Below, piece by piece: positions 46,614 through 63,545 of a DNA stretch of 64,000 nt. The stretch covers positions 352,001 through 416,000 of the forward strand of contig CAVVLO010000005.1 in the NCBI GenBank assembly GCA_963749155.1, written 5' to 3'. The stretch's first letter is position 1, and each line of letters begins with the position of its first letter. This stretch comes from an uncultured Armatimonadia bacterium. GTDB taxonomy: Bacteria; Armatimonadota; Zipacnadia; CAVVLO01. Below the pieces are notes generated by a model that saw only the letters and a program-made list of their open reading frames with translations, was not told the DNA's origin and searched no databases. The position numbers and the translations under genes were made by a program.

Positions 46614-48061
46614 ATGGCTGATGAATACGAAGTCGTAATAGGAATGGAAGTCCACGCGCAGCTGCTTACCAGCTCGAAGTTGTTCTGCGGTTGCTCGACA
46701 GCTTTCGGCGCGGAGCCGAACACGCAGGTCTGTCCTGTCTGCCTCGGCTTCCCTGGGGTGCTGCCCGTGCTGAATGAGCGGGCGGTTGATTTCGTGGTGC
46801 GGACGGGGCTTGCCCTCAACTGCGAGATAGCCGAAGAGAGCATCTTTGCGCGCAAAAATTACTTCTATCCCGACCTGCCGAAGGCTTATCAGATAACCCA
46901 GTATGAGACGCCGCTCTGCCATAAGGGCTATCTCGATATTGAAGTCGAGGGCAGACACCAGGCGCATCGGCATTACGCGGGTTCATCTGGAAGAGGACAC
47001 CGCCCGCACCGCTCATACCGGCGGGGACGCCAGCCTGGTGGACTATAACCGGGGCGGCACCCCTCTGATGGAGATCGTCACCGAGCCGGATATCCGCTCT
47101 GCCGAAGAGGCCCGGGAGTATATCGTCCGGCTGCGGCAGATACTGCGCTACCTGGGCGTCTGCGATGGCAATATGGAAGAAGGCTCTCTGCGCTGCGAGC
47201 CCAATGTAAGTATCAGGCCGGTGGGACAGGTGGAGTTCGGCACCAAGGTTGAGTTGAAGAACCTTAACTCCTTCCGCGCCGTGTACAACGGGCTAAAATA
47301 CGAGGTAGAACGCCAGAGTCGCGCTCTGCGGCGGGGCGAGGCCATCGTGCAGGAGACCCGCCGCTATTTCGAGGAGACCGGCAAGACGGGCGTAATGCGC
47401 AGCAAGGAGAGCGCCCACGATTATCGGTACTTCCCAGAGCCTGACCTGTTGCAACTCAACCTGTCGCCTGAGTCCATCACCGAGCGCAAGCTGCGCGCTG
47501 CCAGAATTGCCCCTGGCGAAGAAGCAGCGCTTCCTGGCCGAACTCGGTCTGTCTGATTATGATGCGACCAACCTGACCGAGGATCGGCGCCTGGCTGGAT
47601 ACTTTGAGGAATGCCTGGCAGCCGGAGCTGATCCGAAAGCTGCCGCCAACTGGTTGATGGGCGATTTCTCGGGCAAGGCCAATGAGGCCGGCATCGCAGT
47701 ATGGGAGTCGAAGGTCAGCCCCGAGGCCCTGGCCGAATTGTTGACTCTCATCGCCGAGGGCATAATCAGCGGCAAGCAGGCCAAGCAGGTCTTCGAGGTG
47801 CAGTTCGAGACGGGCAAATCGCCAAAGGCTATCGTCGAGGAACAGGGCCTCGTGCAGATCTCGGACGATTCGGCCCTCCAGGAACTTGTAAAACAGGTCG
47901 TGGCGGACAATGCCGACTCGCTGGCCCGGTATCTGGCGGGCAATGAGAAGCTGATTGGCTTCTTCGTCGGCCAGGCGATGAAGGCCAGCCAGGGCAAGGC
48001 CAATCCCCAGAAGTTGAACGAACTCTTGAAAGCCGAACTGGAGTCCCATCGGGAGGGCTAA
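46614..48061 (+). CDS. gatB: Amidotransferase subunit B, +1 frameshifts at ~46951 and ~47488
   Basis: [34 protein letters not shown] and GFFVGQAMK motifs. Confidence 0.93.
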
Positions 48062-58075: not shown

Positions 58076-60568
58076 CTAATCGAGGTCCGGTGTCGTGGCG
58101 CCGGGCCTCAGTTTTTCGGCGGGGATTAGCACCAGGCGAGTCTCGCTGACAGACAGCGCAAACCTGAGCCTGCCCTGCTCATCCGCTGTCAGAGGCATTA
58201 CCCGGGTGCCCCCAACGGCGTCTCTTATCCCCAGGACATGGCTTGAGCCAGGCTGCACCCGGTACAGGCCATCCGAAAGCGTAAAGGCTACTTCCACCTG
58301 ACCAGCGGGACCGACCAGTTGCTCGCCTGTCTCGGTTTGCTGAAGCCCGGCGCCAGGGCCGAAGGCGTCCAGTTCTAGTCGGTCTGCGATAGCTTCTCGC
58401 GCCTGCAGCCAAACCTGATTATTGGAAGGTGTCGCCTGCAAAGCCAGCGGTGTCAGTAGTTGCGGGTCGGCGCTGGCAGCGCCAAACAGGCGCACCGTGT
58501 CAGAGGCAAGCCCCAGAGCGGGCGCGAATACCTGACAGATCGCCTCCTGGAAAACCGCACCTCCCAGGTGATGGACTTCCACCTCAAGAGGCAGCTTTCC
58601 CTCATCCCCTGACTGGGCGACGACAAACTGGGGGAAGGCCGCAATCCGCGCGCCATCTCGCCCGGGCAGCCGGTCGGGCGTCACAGGCATCAAGGCAGCC
58701 TGAGCGCGTTCCATCGCGAGGGGCAAATGGAACTTGCTCCAGGCGAGGTCTTCGCTGGACCATCTGGCCCAGAGACTGGTAGAGCCGAAAAACGCCCAGC
58801 CCGATTCGATGGGGTGAGCGAATATCCCGGCATAGACAGGGATGTTTATCAGGCGCGAGCGCATCGCCCGCCAGAGCATAAAGACATGGGTCTGATTACC
58901 GGGGAAGGCCATTACCCATCTGTCGCCGAAAGGCAGGCCTGACAAGGCCGCGTTGGTGGCTTCACCTGCGCGAAAAGCGGGCAAGGCCGAGATCTGCGTA
59001 TAGACCGCAAGCTCTCCTTGCCCTCCCAGCTCTTCGGCGAGCATCGGGAGCCCAAGCAGCAGCTTTGCATCCTCAGGCATCGAGGAGATATGCCCCTCTG
59101 CCCGGTCGCAGGCAAAGCCCAAATCGGCGATGAGGGCGCCACCTCCCGCTACGAAATCTCCAAGCGCGGCGGTGGCTTCTTCAGGCAGCTCAAACTGGGC
59201 AGGCAGCAGGCAGAGGCTATAGTTATCGAGGTTCACAAACTCCCACAGGTCGCGGCTCGATACCACATCGCAAGAGGCAAAAGGCGTGCCTTCGGAGAAA
59301 TCCGAAGCGCATCTCCAGTCATCGTCGAAAAACTGCTGATAGGCCGCGCCCAGGCCAAAATACTTGGGGAAGTGGGTCACAAGCACTGGGGTCAGTGCAG
59401 GCTGCACGAAACAGGCCGTCAGGCGCTTGCCCTCGGCAAGGGCAGCCTCGAGCTCCACTGCGTCAAGAGGTCTGCTGGGTAGAAACTGTTGGGGTATGAC
59501 CACGCCCGAGGTGCCGCGCAAAGCGGCTCGCTGGACGAACTCTTTCAATTTCAGGCCAGGCGCGCGCAGCCTGTCTTCTCGTCCCATATCGCTGGCATAT
59601 AAGGGGAAACAGGCGAACCGGTTGGCCCGCATACAGGCAGCGAGGGCGGGCAGAGAAAGTGCGCTTTCTCCCTCGGCTTGCTCGAAAAAAGCCGAAACAA
59701 ACATCCCCAGGTAGGCGGGAGGCACCACAAGGGCCACATACGGGTCGGCAGGCACATCCACCAGCAGCGGTCGCAGTGGATCATGCTGTTTAACTGCCGC
59801 AAGCAGCGCAAGCAGGCGGTCTTCATGAGCCTGGGCCCAGGCCAGATTGGGATCGAGCCAGGCATAACCGGGCGCGTGGAAGTTGGGCAGCGGCACATTG
59901 AGCGCATCGGAGAGGGTCAGCGTGTCAAAATTCGTCAGCGCGGTGCCCCAGGCCTGGTTTACCTGCGGCAGGTCGGCATAATTGGCGAGCACCCAACCCC
60001 GAAACTCTTTGGGGGTTGGCGGCAGGTAGGCGAGTTCACGATAATCTACTGTCCAGGCAACGACGCGCTTGCTGGCGGCAAGTTTCTTGACCAGGGGGCC
60101 GACAAGGGTGGGGAAGTTCTTCAGCGCGTCCTCGACTGCGATAGCCGCATCTCCGCGCGCAACATAGGGACGCAGTTCGAGGATGAGATAAAGGTCGGAC
60201 GCCTCGGCCGCCGCCAGGGCCTCCAGGGCCTCGTTCAGGGCAAGTTCGGGATTGCGGACAGTGATGGCGCGGATCACGGTATTGAGCCCGCAGGCCCGAC
60301 CGAGTTCCAGATTGTCAGGTTTCCGGTTGAACCAGCCTGCCAGTAAAGGAAGGGATCTGCCTTCGGCCGCAAGTACCACTTTGCCAAGCGCATTGCGCGT
60401 CAGGTTGGCCAGAGGCACTACGGGAGCAGGCGGGGGAGTAGCAGTCGGCTGAGCAGGAGCAGGCTGAGTGGGGGCCGGTTGCTCCTGGGCTGCGGCTGGC
60501 AAGGCGGTCAGAAGAGCGGCCGCCAGCAGCAGCGCCAGGAGGTATATTCCAGCTTTACTTGCCCGCAA
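58076..60568 (-). CDS. Secreted GH42-like hypothetical protein, divergent
   Basis: Signal peptide, Pro-rich linker, FRGWVLANYADLPQVNQAWGT, trimerisation-like GDFVAGGGALIAD. Confidence 0.6.
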   Translation of the reverse strand: MRASKAGIYLLALLLAAALLTALPAAAQEQPAPTQPAPAQPTATPPPAPVVPLANLTRNALGKVVLAAEGRSLPLLAGWFNRKPDNLELGRACGLNTVIRAITVRNPELALNEALEALAAAEASDLYLILELRPYVARGDAAIAVEDALKNFPTLVGPLVKKLAASKRVVAWTVDYRELAYLPPTPKEFRGWVLANYADLPQVNQAWGTALTNFDTLTLSDALNVPLPNFHAPGYAWLDPNLAWAQAHEDRLLALLAAVKQHDPLRPLLVDVPADPYVALVVPPAYLGMFVSAFFEQAEGESALSLPALAACMRANRFACFPLYASDMGREDRLRAPGLKLKEFVQRAALRGTSGVVIPQQFLPSRPLDAVELEAALAEGKRLTACFVQPALTPVLVTHFPKYFGLGAAYQQFFDDDWRCASDFSEGTPFASCDVVSSRDLWEFVNLDNYSLCLLPAQFELPEEATAALGDFVAGGGALIADLGFACDRAEGHISSMPEDAKLLLGLPMLAEELGGQGELAVYTQISALPAFRAGEATNAALSGLPFGDRWVMAFPGNQTHVFMLWRAMRSRLINIPVYAGIFAHPIESGWAFFGSTSLWARWSSEDLAWSKFHLPLAMERAQAALMPVTPDRLPGRDGARIAAFPQFVVAQSGDEGKLPLEVEVHHLGGAVFQEAICQVFAPALGLASDTVRLFGAASADPQLLTPLALQATPSNNQVWLQAREAIADRLELDAFGPGAGLQQTETGEQLVGPAGQVEVAFTLSDGLYRVQPGSSHVLGIRDAVGGTRVMPLTADEQGRLRFALSVSETRLVLIPAEKLRPGATTPDLD

Positions 60569-61595
60569 GCTTGTCCATCACCTGGCGAGTGATAGCTTCG
60601 ATAACAGCGCGGTCGGGCGCTTCGACAGTAGTAGAAGCCACTGGGGCCGTCGCCTTGGTCGAAGGCGTGGGAGCCTTGTCGGCGAAATTGGCCCTGACAT
60701 CGCAGCCACCGCAGTTGAGACAGGCCGGATTGTTGGGGCCGCACAGGCCGTAGGTGCCGAAGACCTTCATCTTCTGCACCGCGACTTCGCGCACGGCGCG
60801 CCTCTGGTGCAGCAGTAGTTCGGTATATTCCGACTTGTCGCCGGCTTCGGTGATATATTCGCGCATATACTGGATGAGGCGCATCTGCATCTCGGTGTAG
60901 ATATTGATTTTCGCGATGCCAAGCGAGATAGCCTTGCGGAAATCGTCGTCCGAGATACCACTGCCTCCGTGCAATACCAGGGGGATGTCGCACAAATCGC
61001 GGATGCGCGCGATCCGGTCGAAATCGAGGTTCGGCTCACCCTTGTAGATGCCATGGACGTTGCCAACGGCAATTGCAAGCGCGTCCACGCCAGTCCGGCG
61101 GACGAACTCGGCGGCGTTTACGGGATCGGTGAAGGCCGCCTCATCAGCGGCTTTCGGGGTTAGCGCGCCTTCACCACCGCCTACATGGCCAAGTTCGGCT
61201 TCGACAGTGACACCGCAAGCATGAGCGAACCGCACGATGTCGGCGGTCTTCTCGACGTTCTCTTCGAAGGGCAGCTTGCTGCCGTCGAACATCACGGAGC
61301 TAAAGCCGGCGCGTATGGCGCGCATTATGGCCTCGAGCGTGACACCATGGTCGAGGTGGACGGCGACAGGGATAGGCGCTTCCTGGGCGACTTTGCGGAT
61401 GGCAGGGGCCAGATCCTCGACTTTCAGGTACTTGAAGTGAACCTCGGCGATCATCAGTATGATAGGTGAGGTAGCCTCGGTGGCGGCTTCTTCGAGGGCT
61501 GCCAGCATCTCGAGGTTAAGCAGGTCGAAACCTCCGACCGCAAACTTGTATTCTTTGGCCTGCGTCAGCAGGTCTCCCATCGGGACAAGGCCCAT
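60555..61595 (-). CDS. fba: Class II fructose/tagatose-bisphosphate aldolase with Cys-rich and encapsulation-peptide-like C-terminal extension
   Basis: VHLDHG, SVMFDGS, EAELGHVGG, GNVHG, LVLHGGSG and KINI motifs; about 60 extra C-terminal residues. Confidence 0.9.
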   Translation of the reverse strand: MGLVPMGDLLTQAKEYKFAVGGFDLLNLEMLAALEEAATEATSPIILMIAEVHFKYLKVEDLAPAIRKVAQEAPIPVAVHLDHGVTLEAIMRAIRAGFSSVMFDGSKLPFEENVEKTADIVRFAHACGVTVEAELGHVGGGEGALTPKAADEAAFTDPVNAAEFVRRTGVDALAIAVGNVHGIYKGEPNLDFDRIARIRDLCDIPLVLHGGSGISDDDFRKAISLGIAKINIYTEMQMRLIQYMREYITEAGDKSEYTELLLHQRRAVREVAVQKMKVFGTYGLCGPNNPACLNCGGCDVRANFADKAPTPSTKATAPVASTTVEAPDRAVIEAITRQVMDKLAGK

Positions 61596-61617
61596 TGTGG
61601 TTCCTCCAGGCTAGAAG

Positions 61618-62817
61618 TCACTCGGATTGTAGCAAATTATACGCATGACGCGCGACCATAACTTCTTCATTAGTGGGAACTACCCAGACTTCGATTGCTG
61701 AATCGGGCGCCGAGATGCGTCTTTCGGCAGGTCCGGAAGCATTGGCGGTCTCATCGAGCCTGAGGCCGACATAGCCAAAAGGCGCCAGGATGGCCGCTCT
61801 GGTGCCTGCTTCGTTCTCGCCGATGCCCCCGCTGAAGGCAATTACATCACAACCAGCGAGGGTGGCCATATAGGCGCCGATATATTTCTGCACCGAGTAG
61901 GCGAGTACCTCCAGGGCAAGCGCGGCGCGTTCGTTGCCAGCTTCTGCGGCTGCCCGGATATCCCGGTTGTCATCCGAAACGCCCGAAAGCGCCAGCAGGC
62001 CGCTCTCCTTCGTCAACTTCTTGATGACGTCCAGGCGCGAAAGGCCCTCTTGTTCCATCGCGAAAAGGAGCGCTTCAGCGTCATAATCGCCCGGACGAGT
62101 CGACATCGGGATGCCCGCCTCGGGGCTGAAGCCGCTCGAGATGTCCACCGACTCGCCTGACAGCACGGCGCAGATACTGCTCCCGCTACCCAGATGGCAG
62201 TTGATTTGGCGCAGTCCCTGGGCAGAGCGCCCAAGCAACTCGGGCACCCGCTCGGCCAGATAACTATGAGACATACTGTGGAAGCCGAACCGGCGCAGAC
62301 CATATTTTTCAATCCAGCTAGCGGGGAAGGCGTAGGTATAGGCTTTCGGCGGCAAGGTCCTGTGGAAACTGGTTTCAAAAACGCCCACCTGGGCAACCTC
62401 GGGGGCGAGTTCGAGGCACAGCTCGACTCCAAGCACCATAAACTGGGTGTGCAGAGGGGCAAGTTTGGCCCCATCGCGCAGCAAAGGCAGCGACTCAAAT
62501 CCCAGTCGCTTGGCGGCTACCTGGTCAGGGCCGCTGTGGATGAGCTTATGGGCGATCGAGTCAAGCTCGGACAGGTCGGTTATGACGCCTTCTTCAGGAT
62601 CCATCAGCAGGGCCAGCGCAGCCTGGATAGCCTCGCGGTGGCCTGGGATTGGCTGCGTACGCACTAGGGCTTCGCGGCCAGCCTTCTGGTGCTTGAGCAC
62701 GGCTTCCTGACTGCCGACGCGCTCGAGGCTGCCTTTGGCAAGTTCCAGTTGCTCGGGCATCTGGTAGGCTCGGTATTTGAAGCTTGAGCCTCCGGAGTTA
62801 ATAGCCAGGATTATCAT
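61618..62817 (-). CDS. ackA: Acetate/propionate family kinase (atypical)
   Basis: INSGGSSFKY, APLH, GFH, HLGSGSS, MSTR, GGIGEN and PTNEE motifs. Confidence 0.88.
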   Translation of the reverse strand: MIILAINSGGSSFKYRAYQMPEQLELAKGSLERVGSQEAVLKHQKAGREALVRTQPIPGHREAIQAALALLMDPEEGVITDLSELDSIAHKLIHSGPDQVAAKRLGFESLPLLRDGAKLAPLHTQFMVLGVELCLELAPEVAQVGVFETSFHRTLPPKAYTYAFPASWIEKYGLRRFGFHSMSHSYLAERVPELLGRSAQGLRQINCHLGSGSSICAVLSGESVDISSGFSPEAGIPMSTRPGDYDAEALLFAMEQEGLSRLDVIKKLTKESGLLALSGVSDDNRDIRAAAEAGNERAALALEVLAYSVQKYIGAYMATLAGCDVIAFSGGIGENEAGTRAAILAPFGYVGLRLDETANASGPAERRISAPDSAIEVWVVPTNEEVMVARHAYNLLQSE

Positions 62818-63545
62818 CGAGCATCCCCTCAGCGGTCAAAGCAGCGCGAGCCGCTTGTTGTTCAGCTTCTTTCTTGGTGCGACCTTCGCCCTGGCCTGGC
62901 GAGCGCCCTGCCACCTGGGCTTCGACCTGGAAGAACGGCTCATGAGGCGGGCCCAAGGAGGCCAGCACAACATAAACAGGCAATTGGCCGTATCGCTGCT
63001 GGCATTCCTGCTGGAAACGCGATTTGAAATCGTAGAACAAGCCCGCCGTGCCTGCCTGGGCCAGTTCTTCAGCCAGCAACAGCGCAACCAGTCGCCTGGA
63101 GCTGGCGTAACCGAGTTGCAAATAGACCGCGCCCAGCACTGCCTCGACTGCGCCAGCCAGGGGCCTTTGGTGCGGCGACCCCGAGCGCCTCGCGGTTGCG
63201 CCACACACCAGCAGAGTATCCAGGCCCCATCTCCTGGCTACCTGGGCAAGCGTGCCGGTGCGCACCAGGGTCGCGCGGATCTTCGAAAGCGCGCCTTCCT
63301 GCAGCTCAGGGAAGCGAGCGTAAAGCTCTTCGGTCACGGCAAGTTCCAGCACGGCATCGCCCAGGAACTCCAGCCGCTCATTATGCTCGAAACCTGTCAA
63401 AGCGGCTTCCTGCACGGCAGATGAATGCACAAGTGCCTGCCGAAGCAGCTCGGGCGCCTTCAGAGACTCTCCCAGCAAGCCTTCGAGCAATACTGCCAGT
63501 CCGGGCAGCTTGCTCGGTAAGCAGGGCTTCTGGAGCGGTGTCCAT
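62798..63545 (-). CDS. rnc: Ribonuclease III, +1 frameshift at ~63503
   Basis: NERLEFLGDAVL and dsRBD (KKEAEQQAA); AGGAGG SD before ATG 63545 in a shifted frame. Confidence 0.92.

Follow-up and report, generated by a model that had tools for sequence, protein, structure and literature searches.

The fba* Gene and Its C-Terminal Extension

The window analyzed here, a stretch of 64,000 nucleotides from an uncultured Armatimonadia bacterium (contig CAVVLO010000005.1, positions 352,001 to 416,000, hereafter contig C5 of the source genome G000), encodes on its minus strand a class II fructose-bisphosphate aldolase (FBA) with a C-terminal extension of the type found on the cargo of bacterial microcompartments (BMCs), immediately downstream of an acetate kinase gene. 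The two genes are denoted fba* and ackA*, and their proteins FBA* and AckA*. The features of fba* are the following:

60555..61595, minus strand: fba*, a class II (PF01116) aldolase of 346 amino acids with a C-terminal BMC-type extension (open reading frame and Pfam)
60747..61583, minus strand: catalytic TIM-barrel domain, residues 5-283 (Pfam; AlphaFold predicted local distance difference test score, pLDDT, mostly >90)
60702..60743, minus strand: Cys4 motif C285-x6-C292-x2-C295-x2-C298 (alignment)
60615..60701, minus strand: Pro/Thr/Ala-rich disordered linker, residues 299-327 (pLDDT)
60558..60614, minus strand: terminal amphipathic helix, residues 328-346, a candidate encapsulation peptide (EP; AlphaFold helix 329-345)
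61603..61607, minus strand: Shine-Dalgarno sequence GGAGG, 7 bases ahead of the fba* start codon ATG (sequence)

The PF01116 match covers residues 5-283 (E = 1.2e-95, 320.6 bits against a Pfam cut-off of 25.5), and the remainder is a tail of 63 residues whose terminal segment is DRAVIEAITRQVMDKLAGK. In an alignment of 36 sequences, the residues D82, H83, H181, H209, and N231 are invariant, and they would correspond to the metal-ligand His residues (Zn in class II FBAs) and the catalytic Asp and Asn. The AlphaFold2 model computed on the same alignment has a mean pLDDT of 87.8, with a confident barrel; the score drops from ~75 to 53 across the Cys loop and is under 50 in the stretches 299-304 and 307-325. 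The four cysteines of the tail are invariant in all 36 aligned sequences, the linker varies among the homologues in both length and sequence, and the helix carries hydrophobic residues at positions i and i+3/4, resembling the EPs of the genome's own BMC locus. The original prediction, which described an aldolase running about 60 residues past the normal class II end with a Cys4 motif, a Pro/Thr/Ala linker, and an amphipathic helix, is thus confirmed in both anatomy and coordinates. Among the NCBIfam models, FBA* falls with the class II ketose-bisphosphate aldolases and stays under every curated equivalog cut-off. Its best score is with NF005284 (ketose 1,6-bisphosphate aldolase, 341.4 against a cut-off of 406 bits), and the glycolytic equivalogs TIGR01859 and NF009497 give 303.1 vs 343.05 bits and 309.5 vs 423 bits, respectively.

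The tail is a trait of a family. In approximately 108 of the 120 best-matching homologues of FBA* in the database, which are mostly 330-370 residues long and whose named sources include metagenome-assembled genomes of Poribacteria, Latescibacteria, and Actinomycetota, 18 or more residues follow the Cys motif. The tail is therefore not a chance feature, since the motif is kept both in these homologues and in the 36 aligned sequences. The extension is missing from the paralogs in the source genome and from at least 60 other FBAs, which end near residue 283. To keep the tail from driving the grouping, a tree was computed from the catalytic domain alone, with 128 rows comprising every second tailed match, all untailed matches, and untailed FBAs from the fetched loci. 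The 53 Cys-tailed rows all belong to a single 64-member clade with an SH-like support of 87; the other 11 rows of this clade have variant or lost tails and include one untailed Escherichia homologue, while the untailed paralog of the source genome and 61 other FBAs lie outside. Two further searches were limited by their design. A word search with the tail in a set of 5.8 billion proteins returned FBA* itself as the sole match, since the divergent tails do not have 5-mers in common, and a scan of genome contigs with the full-length alignment gave mostly untailed Firmicutes FBAs, because its search patterns derived from the catalytic domain.

A second Cys-rich cluster within the linker (e.g., CxxCxxC...CxxC) was observed in the FBA-II tails P0003, P0004, P0012, P0022, P0023, and P0057, and likewise in the tails P0139, P0153, P0154, P0164, and P0167 of aldolases of the PF00596 family. 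These clusters hint that some lineages have more than a single metal or disulfide site. The proteobacterial class II FBAs L023, L034, L046, and L055 end in another conserved extension, ~110 residues long (EHLIIYN...SYRDHPxH...) and unrelated to the Cys/helix tail.

Microcompartment Locus of the Source Genome and Match of the Tail

A genome-wide profile search of the source genome gave four PF00936 and three PF03319 matches, all of them on contig C2 at ~698-705 kb, and none on contig C5, hence none in the window. The original prediction had noted this absence from the window and had proposed to look for shell genes, and for an aldehyde dehydrogenase or PduL bearing EPs, in the rest of the genome; all of these are present in the C2 locus. 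Its gene order is AP_endonuc_2, two GFO/IDH/MocA genes, a PF00596 aldolase, two BMC-H, PduL, three BMC-P, a 255-residue unknown protein, aldehyde dehydrogenase (AldDH), an RnfC/PduS-like protein, BMC-T, and then an acetate kinase, an arrangement that corresponds to the PVM type as presented in the relevant sections of PMC4207490 and PMC8217296. The PduL, the 255-residue protein, and the AldDH carry N-terminal EP-like helices. The C-terminus of the PF00596 aldolase consists of a CxxCGxC motif, a linker, and an amphipathic helix, and none of the other cargo proteins encoded there has the Cys motif. A C-terminal extension of ~40 residues, acidic at first and then Gly/Arg-rich, is present on one of the two BMC-H proteins (L008 12266-12646).

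The tail of FBA* matches that of the C2 PF00596 aldolase directly in BLASTP (E = 1e-6), its Cys motif aligning with the CxxCGxC of the PF00596 BMC-aldolase tails. In the parts of PMC4594438 and PMC8217296 that deal with it, the latter tail is described as an encapsulation extension. Of the 120 best homologues of the C2 aldolase, 101 have at least 240 residues, and the last 75 residues of these contain CxxCxxC in 48 cases, CxxC in 35, and neither in 18, so that BMC-type PF00596 aldolases commonly bear a Cys motif before the helix.

The similarity holds at the level of profiles. An hhalign comparison of 108 FBA tails with 53 PF00596 tails, the latter picked for CxxCxxC, gave a probability of 96.8%, E = 2.6e-10, and a score of 49.0 over 46 columns. 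The reversed profiles scored 19.5 and 20.8, and none of 40 column permutations exceeded 13.6. Taken by itself, the Cys part gave 17.6, and the linker together with the helix 30.0 (93%, E = 3e-7). Hidden Markov models (HMMs) of the tails, trained without the genome's own or near-identical sequences, were also run over the 10,534 open reading frames (ORFs) of at least 100 residues in the genome. The PF00596-tail HMM ranked the PVM aldolase first (36.9 bits) and FBA* second (31.0 bits, E = 1.2e-7), with the next ORF at E = 0.15. Conversely, the FBA-tail HMM placed FBA* first, followed by the PVM aldolase (E = 1.6e-4) and, without significance, the EP at the N-terminus of PduL (E = 0.75). When the tail (residues 284-346) was modelled in complex with two BMC-H copies, the prediction scored 0.00, which weighs neither for nor against binding.

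An ORF of 184 residues at 47507-48061 of the window (plus strand; C5:399507-400061) contains an EP-like segment that is internal rather than terminal. It ranked fourth with the PF00596-tail HMM (E = 0.59, not significant) and fifth with a helix-only EP HMM, for which 11 bona fide termini of cargo proteins from four genomes were used.

Co-occurrence with Shell Genes

The distribution of the tail was compared with that of shell genes in a sample of 401 genomes of the home phylum. Matches to the tailed profile of at least 464 bits that reach the profile end were counted as tailed; all other matches in this phylum scored at most 315 bits and stop near profile position 285. Seven genomes are tailed, namely the source genome, G203, and five of the family f27, and a search of the whole home class (79 genomes) added no further one. 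Shell genes are present in 25 of the 401 genomes, comprising all 7 tailed genomes and 18 of the 394 untailed ones. The hypergeometric probability is ~1.5e-9 when counted per genome, where kin genomes are not independent, and ~0.006 when counted by family, the tail occurring in 3 of ~50 families, all within the 10 that bear shell genes.

In a second, Firmicutes-type phylum (281 genomes), three genomes have the Cys motif, G944 and G966 together with the helix and G1012 as the Cys motif only. All three possess PF00936, the base rate of PF03319 in this sample being 85 of 281. A sample of 301 Chloroflexota genomes contained no tailed FBA and hence has no bearing on the co-occurrence. The co-occurrence proposed as a check in the original prediction is therefore strict in the two phyla, with shell genes in 10 of 10 Cys-tailed genomes.

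Tailed Class II Aldolases in Microcompartment Operons

In G944 the tailed enzyme is encoded in a BMC operon, with the order DeoR, tailed FBA-II, BMC-H, BMC-H, PduL, AldDH, PduS-like, BMC-T, and PfkB kinase. The aldolase is 48% identical to FBA*. The operon contains neither a PF00596 aldolase nor a glycyl-radical enzyme, and the tailed FBA-II is its sole aldolase. It thus occupies the slot of the signature aldolase, as the original prediction had envisaged for an FBA-II-type enzyme. The BMC-P triplet of this genome lies at C61:17115-18016, on another contig than the FBA-led operon, which itself has no BMC-P.

A second form of FBA-II, which arose independently and lies outside the tailed clade of the tree, ends in a helix preceded by a short linker and has no Cys motif. 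It is found in GRM5-like loci of Clostridia-type Firmicutes genomes. The order in G428 is AldDH, BMC-T, DeoR, FBA, and that in G844 is glycyl-radical enzyme, activase, BMC, alcohol dehydrogenase, two BMC-H, BMC-P, PduS-like, BMC-T, AldDH, BMC-T, DeoR, FBA. All four genomes with this form have shell genes, compared with three of the six with close untailed orthologues.

The BMC locus of the f27 family (G030) encodes a radical-SAM protein of 346 residues (L127 13918-14958) between the RnfC/PduS-like gene and BMC-T. It has a single BMC-P, and the tail of its PF00596 aldolase reads CxxC instead of CxxCxxC.

Acetate Kinase and Gene Neighborhood

The genes next to fba* in the window are the following:

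61618..62817, minus strand: ackA*, acetate/propionate-kinase family, 399 amino acids, without a terminal extension (PF00871, residues 3-390)
62798..63490, minus strand: rnc (RNase III), the upstream neighbor, not part of the module (Pfam)
58076..60568, minus strand: protein of 830 amino acids whose Pro/Ala/Thr-rich N-terminus resembles a signal peptide, with a weak GH42 match (PF02449, E = 0.0014, below the cut-off)

The ackA* gene ends 22 nt upstream of fba* and overlaps rnc by 20 nt, while the first start codon of the 830-residue ORF overlaps the fba* stop by 14 nt. The 830-residue protein was considered as a member of the module and rejected, as BLASTP gave no match to the neighbors in G203.

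AckA* scores 348.2 bits with TIGR00016 (cut-off 293.4), no equivalog-level model reaching its cut-off, and aligns end to end with the Methanosarcina thermophila enzyme (1TUU). It has Lys91, Glu148, and Ser211, where the canonical residues are Arg91, Asp148, and Asn211 (M. thermophila numbering), and two of its motifs are changed, LHNPPN to LHTQFM and GTRCGSIDP to STRPGDYDA. From the literature on the Methanosarcina enzyme, we take these positions to be important for catalysis. The acetate kinase had been called atypical in the original prediction, and these changes agree with that description. The genome has three acetate kinases, of which the pta-linked one is canonical (Arg, Asp, Asn) and the one in the BMC locus keeps Arg91 and Asp148. 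The ackA*-fba* pair is conserved in G203, the nearest tailed lineage, where the two genes overlap and the kinase also has Lys91, Glu148, Ser211, and STRPGD; the adjacency to rnc is not kept there. In the f27 genomes the tailed FBA is coupled instead to a GFO/IDH/MocA gene. A Lys91/Glu148 acetate kinase is encoded in f27 between a RACo-like activator with a B12-binding protein and purA (L153, L157; G030 C11, G070 C10), partners that would not be expected for an acetate kinase. The Lys91/Glu148 signature was accordingly rejected as a marker of the pairing with FBA.

There are likewise three PF01116 genes in the source genome. The untailed one on C2, 42% identical to FBA*, is flanked by a fructokinase-like PfkB kinase on one side and by two phosphofructokinases on the other. 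The third copy (C1:917766-918624, 38% identical) is spread over two frames with an in-frame stop and is likely a pseudogene or an assembly error. The canonical acetate kinase is located at C5:421897-423108, directly after pta on the same strand, ~7 kb past the window end (L152 5864-8258). The genes plsX-fabH-fabD-fabG follow pta-ackA and lead into fabF-rnc-ackA*-fba*, which places two acetate kinases in one same-strand string.

Other neighborhoods bear on the possible substrate. A metagenome scan yielded six short contigs, informative for the immediate neighbors only, among which the tailed FBA is found next to AP_endonuc_2 genes (L139, L140) or to DUF4434 and an AGE-family isomerase (L137). 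Among the relatives from cultured organisms, the closest, L011, is 50% identical to FBA* and is a member of NF005284 at 565 bits; its operon encodes an ABC sugar transporter, a lyxose/mannose isomerase, the aldolase, and a PfkB kinase. A search of E. coli genomes for a homologue of L011 gave no match. The G944 operon likewise closes with a PfkB kinase, and AP_endonuc_2 and GFO/IDH/MocA genes lie ahead of the PF00596 aldolase in the C2 locus of the source genome. These contexts hint at an isomerase-kinase-aldolase route that would convert an uncommon sugar into dihydroxyacetone phosphate (DHAP) and a short aldehyde.

Proposed Function and Alternative Explanations

On the basis of these results, we propose, with a probability of roughly 75%, that FBA* is a specialized PF01116 ketose-phosphate aldolase that its tail recruits into the C2-encoded PVM metabolosome as a second aldehyde-generating enzyme. 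Recruitment would take place after translation, and inside the compartment FBA* would act as an aldehyde source beside the resident PF00596 aldolase, cleaving a ketose phosphate into DHAP and a short (hydroxy)aldehyde. By way of the CoA-acylating aldehyde dehydrogenase, which bears an EP, and of PduL, this aldehyde would then become an acyl-phosphate, from which an enzyme of the acetate-kinase family, probably the co-transcribed AckA*, would produce the acid and ATP. AckA*, which has no terminal extension, is taken to be cytosolic. The cysteines of the tail may bind a metal, for instance as the Zn or Fe-S site suggested in the original prediction, or form disulfides. The original prediction of a BMC-targeted, sugar-phosphate-cleaving signature enzyme is thus supported as regards targeting by the tail match, the co-occurrence, and the operon of G944; in the source genome, FBA* would be a second aldolase beside the PF00596 enzyme and not the sole signature. 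Neither outcome that the original prediction had named as a refutation, a genome devoid of shell genes or tailed homologues in BMC-free genomes, was encountered.

A number of observations weigh against this proposal. The hhalign tails were pre-selected by their Cys pattern, which favors the Cys part of the match and not the helix part. The helix-only EP HMM assigns the FBA* helix just 2.5 bits, at rank 77 of 7,412 matches, or rank 22 of 1,626 when only matches at ORF termini are counted. Scoring of the tail with EP profiles, as had been suggested at the outset, thus has a mixed outcome, FBA* standing out with the composite PF00596-tail HMM (31.0 bits) and not with the helix-only one; as far as these scores go, the helix alone is not diagnostic whereas the composite tail is. 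The seven tailed genomes of the home phylum come from only three families, and owing to their relatedness they do not count as independent samples. Furthermore, fba* and the shell genes are on different contigs in all seven, and the home lineage consequently offers no positional support. Most of the tailed database homologues come from phyla outside the shell-gene test (Poribacteria, Latescibacteria, and Actinomycetota). Finally, the Lys91/Glu148 kinase of f27, beside corrinoid genes, has 39-41% identity with AckA* and is not more similar to it than the canonical paralogs are, and because the signature recurs there, the link of AckA* to the organelle rests only on the adjacency to fba* in two lineages.

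Several of these points could be accommodated if the tail were unrelated to BMCs, forming a small metal-binding knuckle and an amphipathic helix through which a cytosolic aldolase oligomerizes, is regulated, or binds to a membrane or a partner, in which case the likeness of the two tails would reflect a shared aldolase-specific function. The Cys motif is indeed found on two aldolase families and on no other cargo of the locus, the tails P0011 and P0013 stop directly after it without a helix, the helix-only profile does not distinguish FBA*, and fba* never adjoins shell genes in the seven home-phylum genomes. This explanation is nevertheless unlikely, as shell genes are present in 10 of the 10 Cys-tailed genomes tested, the tailed enzyme heads the BMC operon of G944, the untailed paralogs and relatives function without any extension, and the matched PF00596 tail is the encapsulation extension reported in the relevant passages of PMC4594438 and PMC8217296. 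It can also be envisaged that the tail is a relic from a G944-like BMC operon and that the enzyme is now cytosolic, or encapsulated without metabolic purpose. The position of fba* within the fabF-rnc string, away from a BMC locus that already has its own PF00596 aldolase, fits such a history, as does the patchiness of the tailed clade, with three families in the phylum, which would be expected after horizontal transfer. A useless tail of 63 residues would, however, be expected to decay, while the Cys motif and the helix are intact in seven genomes of three families despite a divergence of 50-70% in the catalytic domain, and the ackA*-fba* pairing is kept between the source genome and G203; we therefore give the relic scenario a rather small chance.

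Finally, fba* might simply encode the ordinary glycolytic FBA of a housekeeping operon, next to an ordinary acetate kinase. Apart from the neighboring fabF and rnc and from the names of the best-matching families (fructose-bisphosphate or ketose-bisphosphate aldolase), the data speak against this, and we consider it very improbable. The genome has an intact untailed FBA by the fructokinase-like kinase and the two phosphofructokinases, as well as a canonical AckA next to pta, so that fba* is not the housekeeping copy. FBA* is moreover under all equivalog cut-offs and in another clade than the glycolytic paralog, and AckA* has Lys91 and Glu148.

The recruitment of FBA* into the PVM metabolosome would mean that a known targeting system is used on a new enzyme family encoded apart from the shell genes. 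The function of a BMC is currently read from the genes adjoining its shell genes; a tagged cargo enzyme encoded elsewhere would imply that the content of the organelle, and with it the substrate range, can exceed the locus. The results also point to a third aldolase family, after the FucA-type and DeoC-type ones, as a metabolosome signature enzyme, and they reveal a conserved Cys motif in aldolase encapsulation extensions, which earlier surveys took as an unconserved linker. A broader hypothesis, to which we give somewhat less than an even chance, is that the Cys/linker/helix unit is a transferable targeting module, perhaps with a metal-binding or redox-active role, used on two structurally unrelated aldolase superfamilies, and that the tailed PF01116 enzymes constitute a widespread, uncatalogued class of sugar-phosphate metabolosome enzymes, either as the sole signature enzyme (as in G944) or as unlinked plug-in cargo. 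If so, such cargo would widen the substrate range of PVM compartments without a nearby shell gene, and catalogues built outward from shell genes would systematically miss part of it. The tail could also be a compact targeting tag for engineered compartments.

Comparison with Known Systems

Full-text literature searches returned no report of a PF01116 or bisphosphate aldolase as microcompartment cargo or signature enzyme. The listing of EP-bearing proteins in PMC4594438 does not include PF01116, and it is given there as complete to its authors' knowledge. The same paper, where it treats the aldolase linker, describes it as conserved neither in composition nor in sequence, yet its Table 2 gives 5.5% Cys. 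The text and supplements of PMC8217296 cite only pfam00596 and pfam01791 aldolases, the "01116" strings in the supplements being locus tags, while its locus diagrams, outside this count, might show PF01116. In the portions of PMC8156839 on this subject, there is mention merely of a "class-II aldolase homolog".

A satellite BMC locus as defined in the corresponding section of Sutter 2021 (PMC8217296) holds at least one shell gene. The ackA*-fba* pair has none, and the designation of satellite module in the original prediction falls outside this definition; catalogues based on shell genes would not find the pair. AckA* is the third paralog beside the AckA of the BMC locus and the pta-linked AckA, and like these two it is a full-length PF00871/TIGR00016 protein. 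Acetate kinase is listed among the ancillary genes of PVM loci in the part of PMC4207490 concerned.

With the untailed class II aldolases (FbaA-type, GatY/KbaY, YdjI, and NF005284), FBA* shares the catalytic domain, including the conserved His and Asp residues, and differs in its tail of 63 residues, which is not covered by any solved structure. The DeoC-type aldolase (PF01791) of SPU loci is, according to the pertinent part of PMC8217296, also a sugar-phosphate aldolase that acts as the aldehyde-generating signature enzyme of a metabolosome; it belongs to a different class and family from FBA*, and no RpiB partner was seen here.

The closest counterpart is the PF00596 (FucA/RhaD-like) aldolase of the PVM, PVM-like, GRM5, and ACI loci, which has the same succession of Cys motif, variable linker, and amphipathic helix, and for which the same chemistry is expected, the cleavage of a ketose phosphate into DHAP and an aldehyde. 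The folds are unrelated, FBA* being a PF01116 TIM barrel, and the tail of FBA* has four cysteines compared with three or two in the PF00596 tails. The fba* gene is on another contig than the shell genes, unlike the in-locus PF00596 aldolase. The slot of the latter is filled by the tailed FBA-II in G944, and in the source genome FBA* coexists with a PVM shell.

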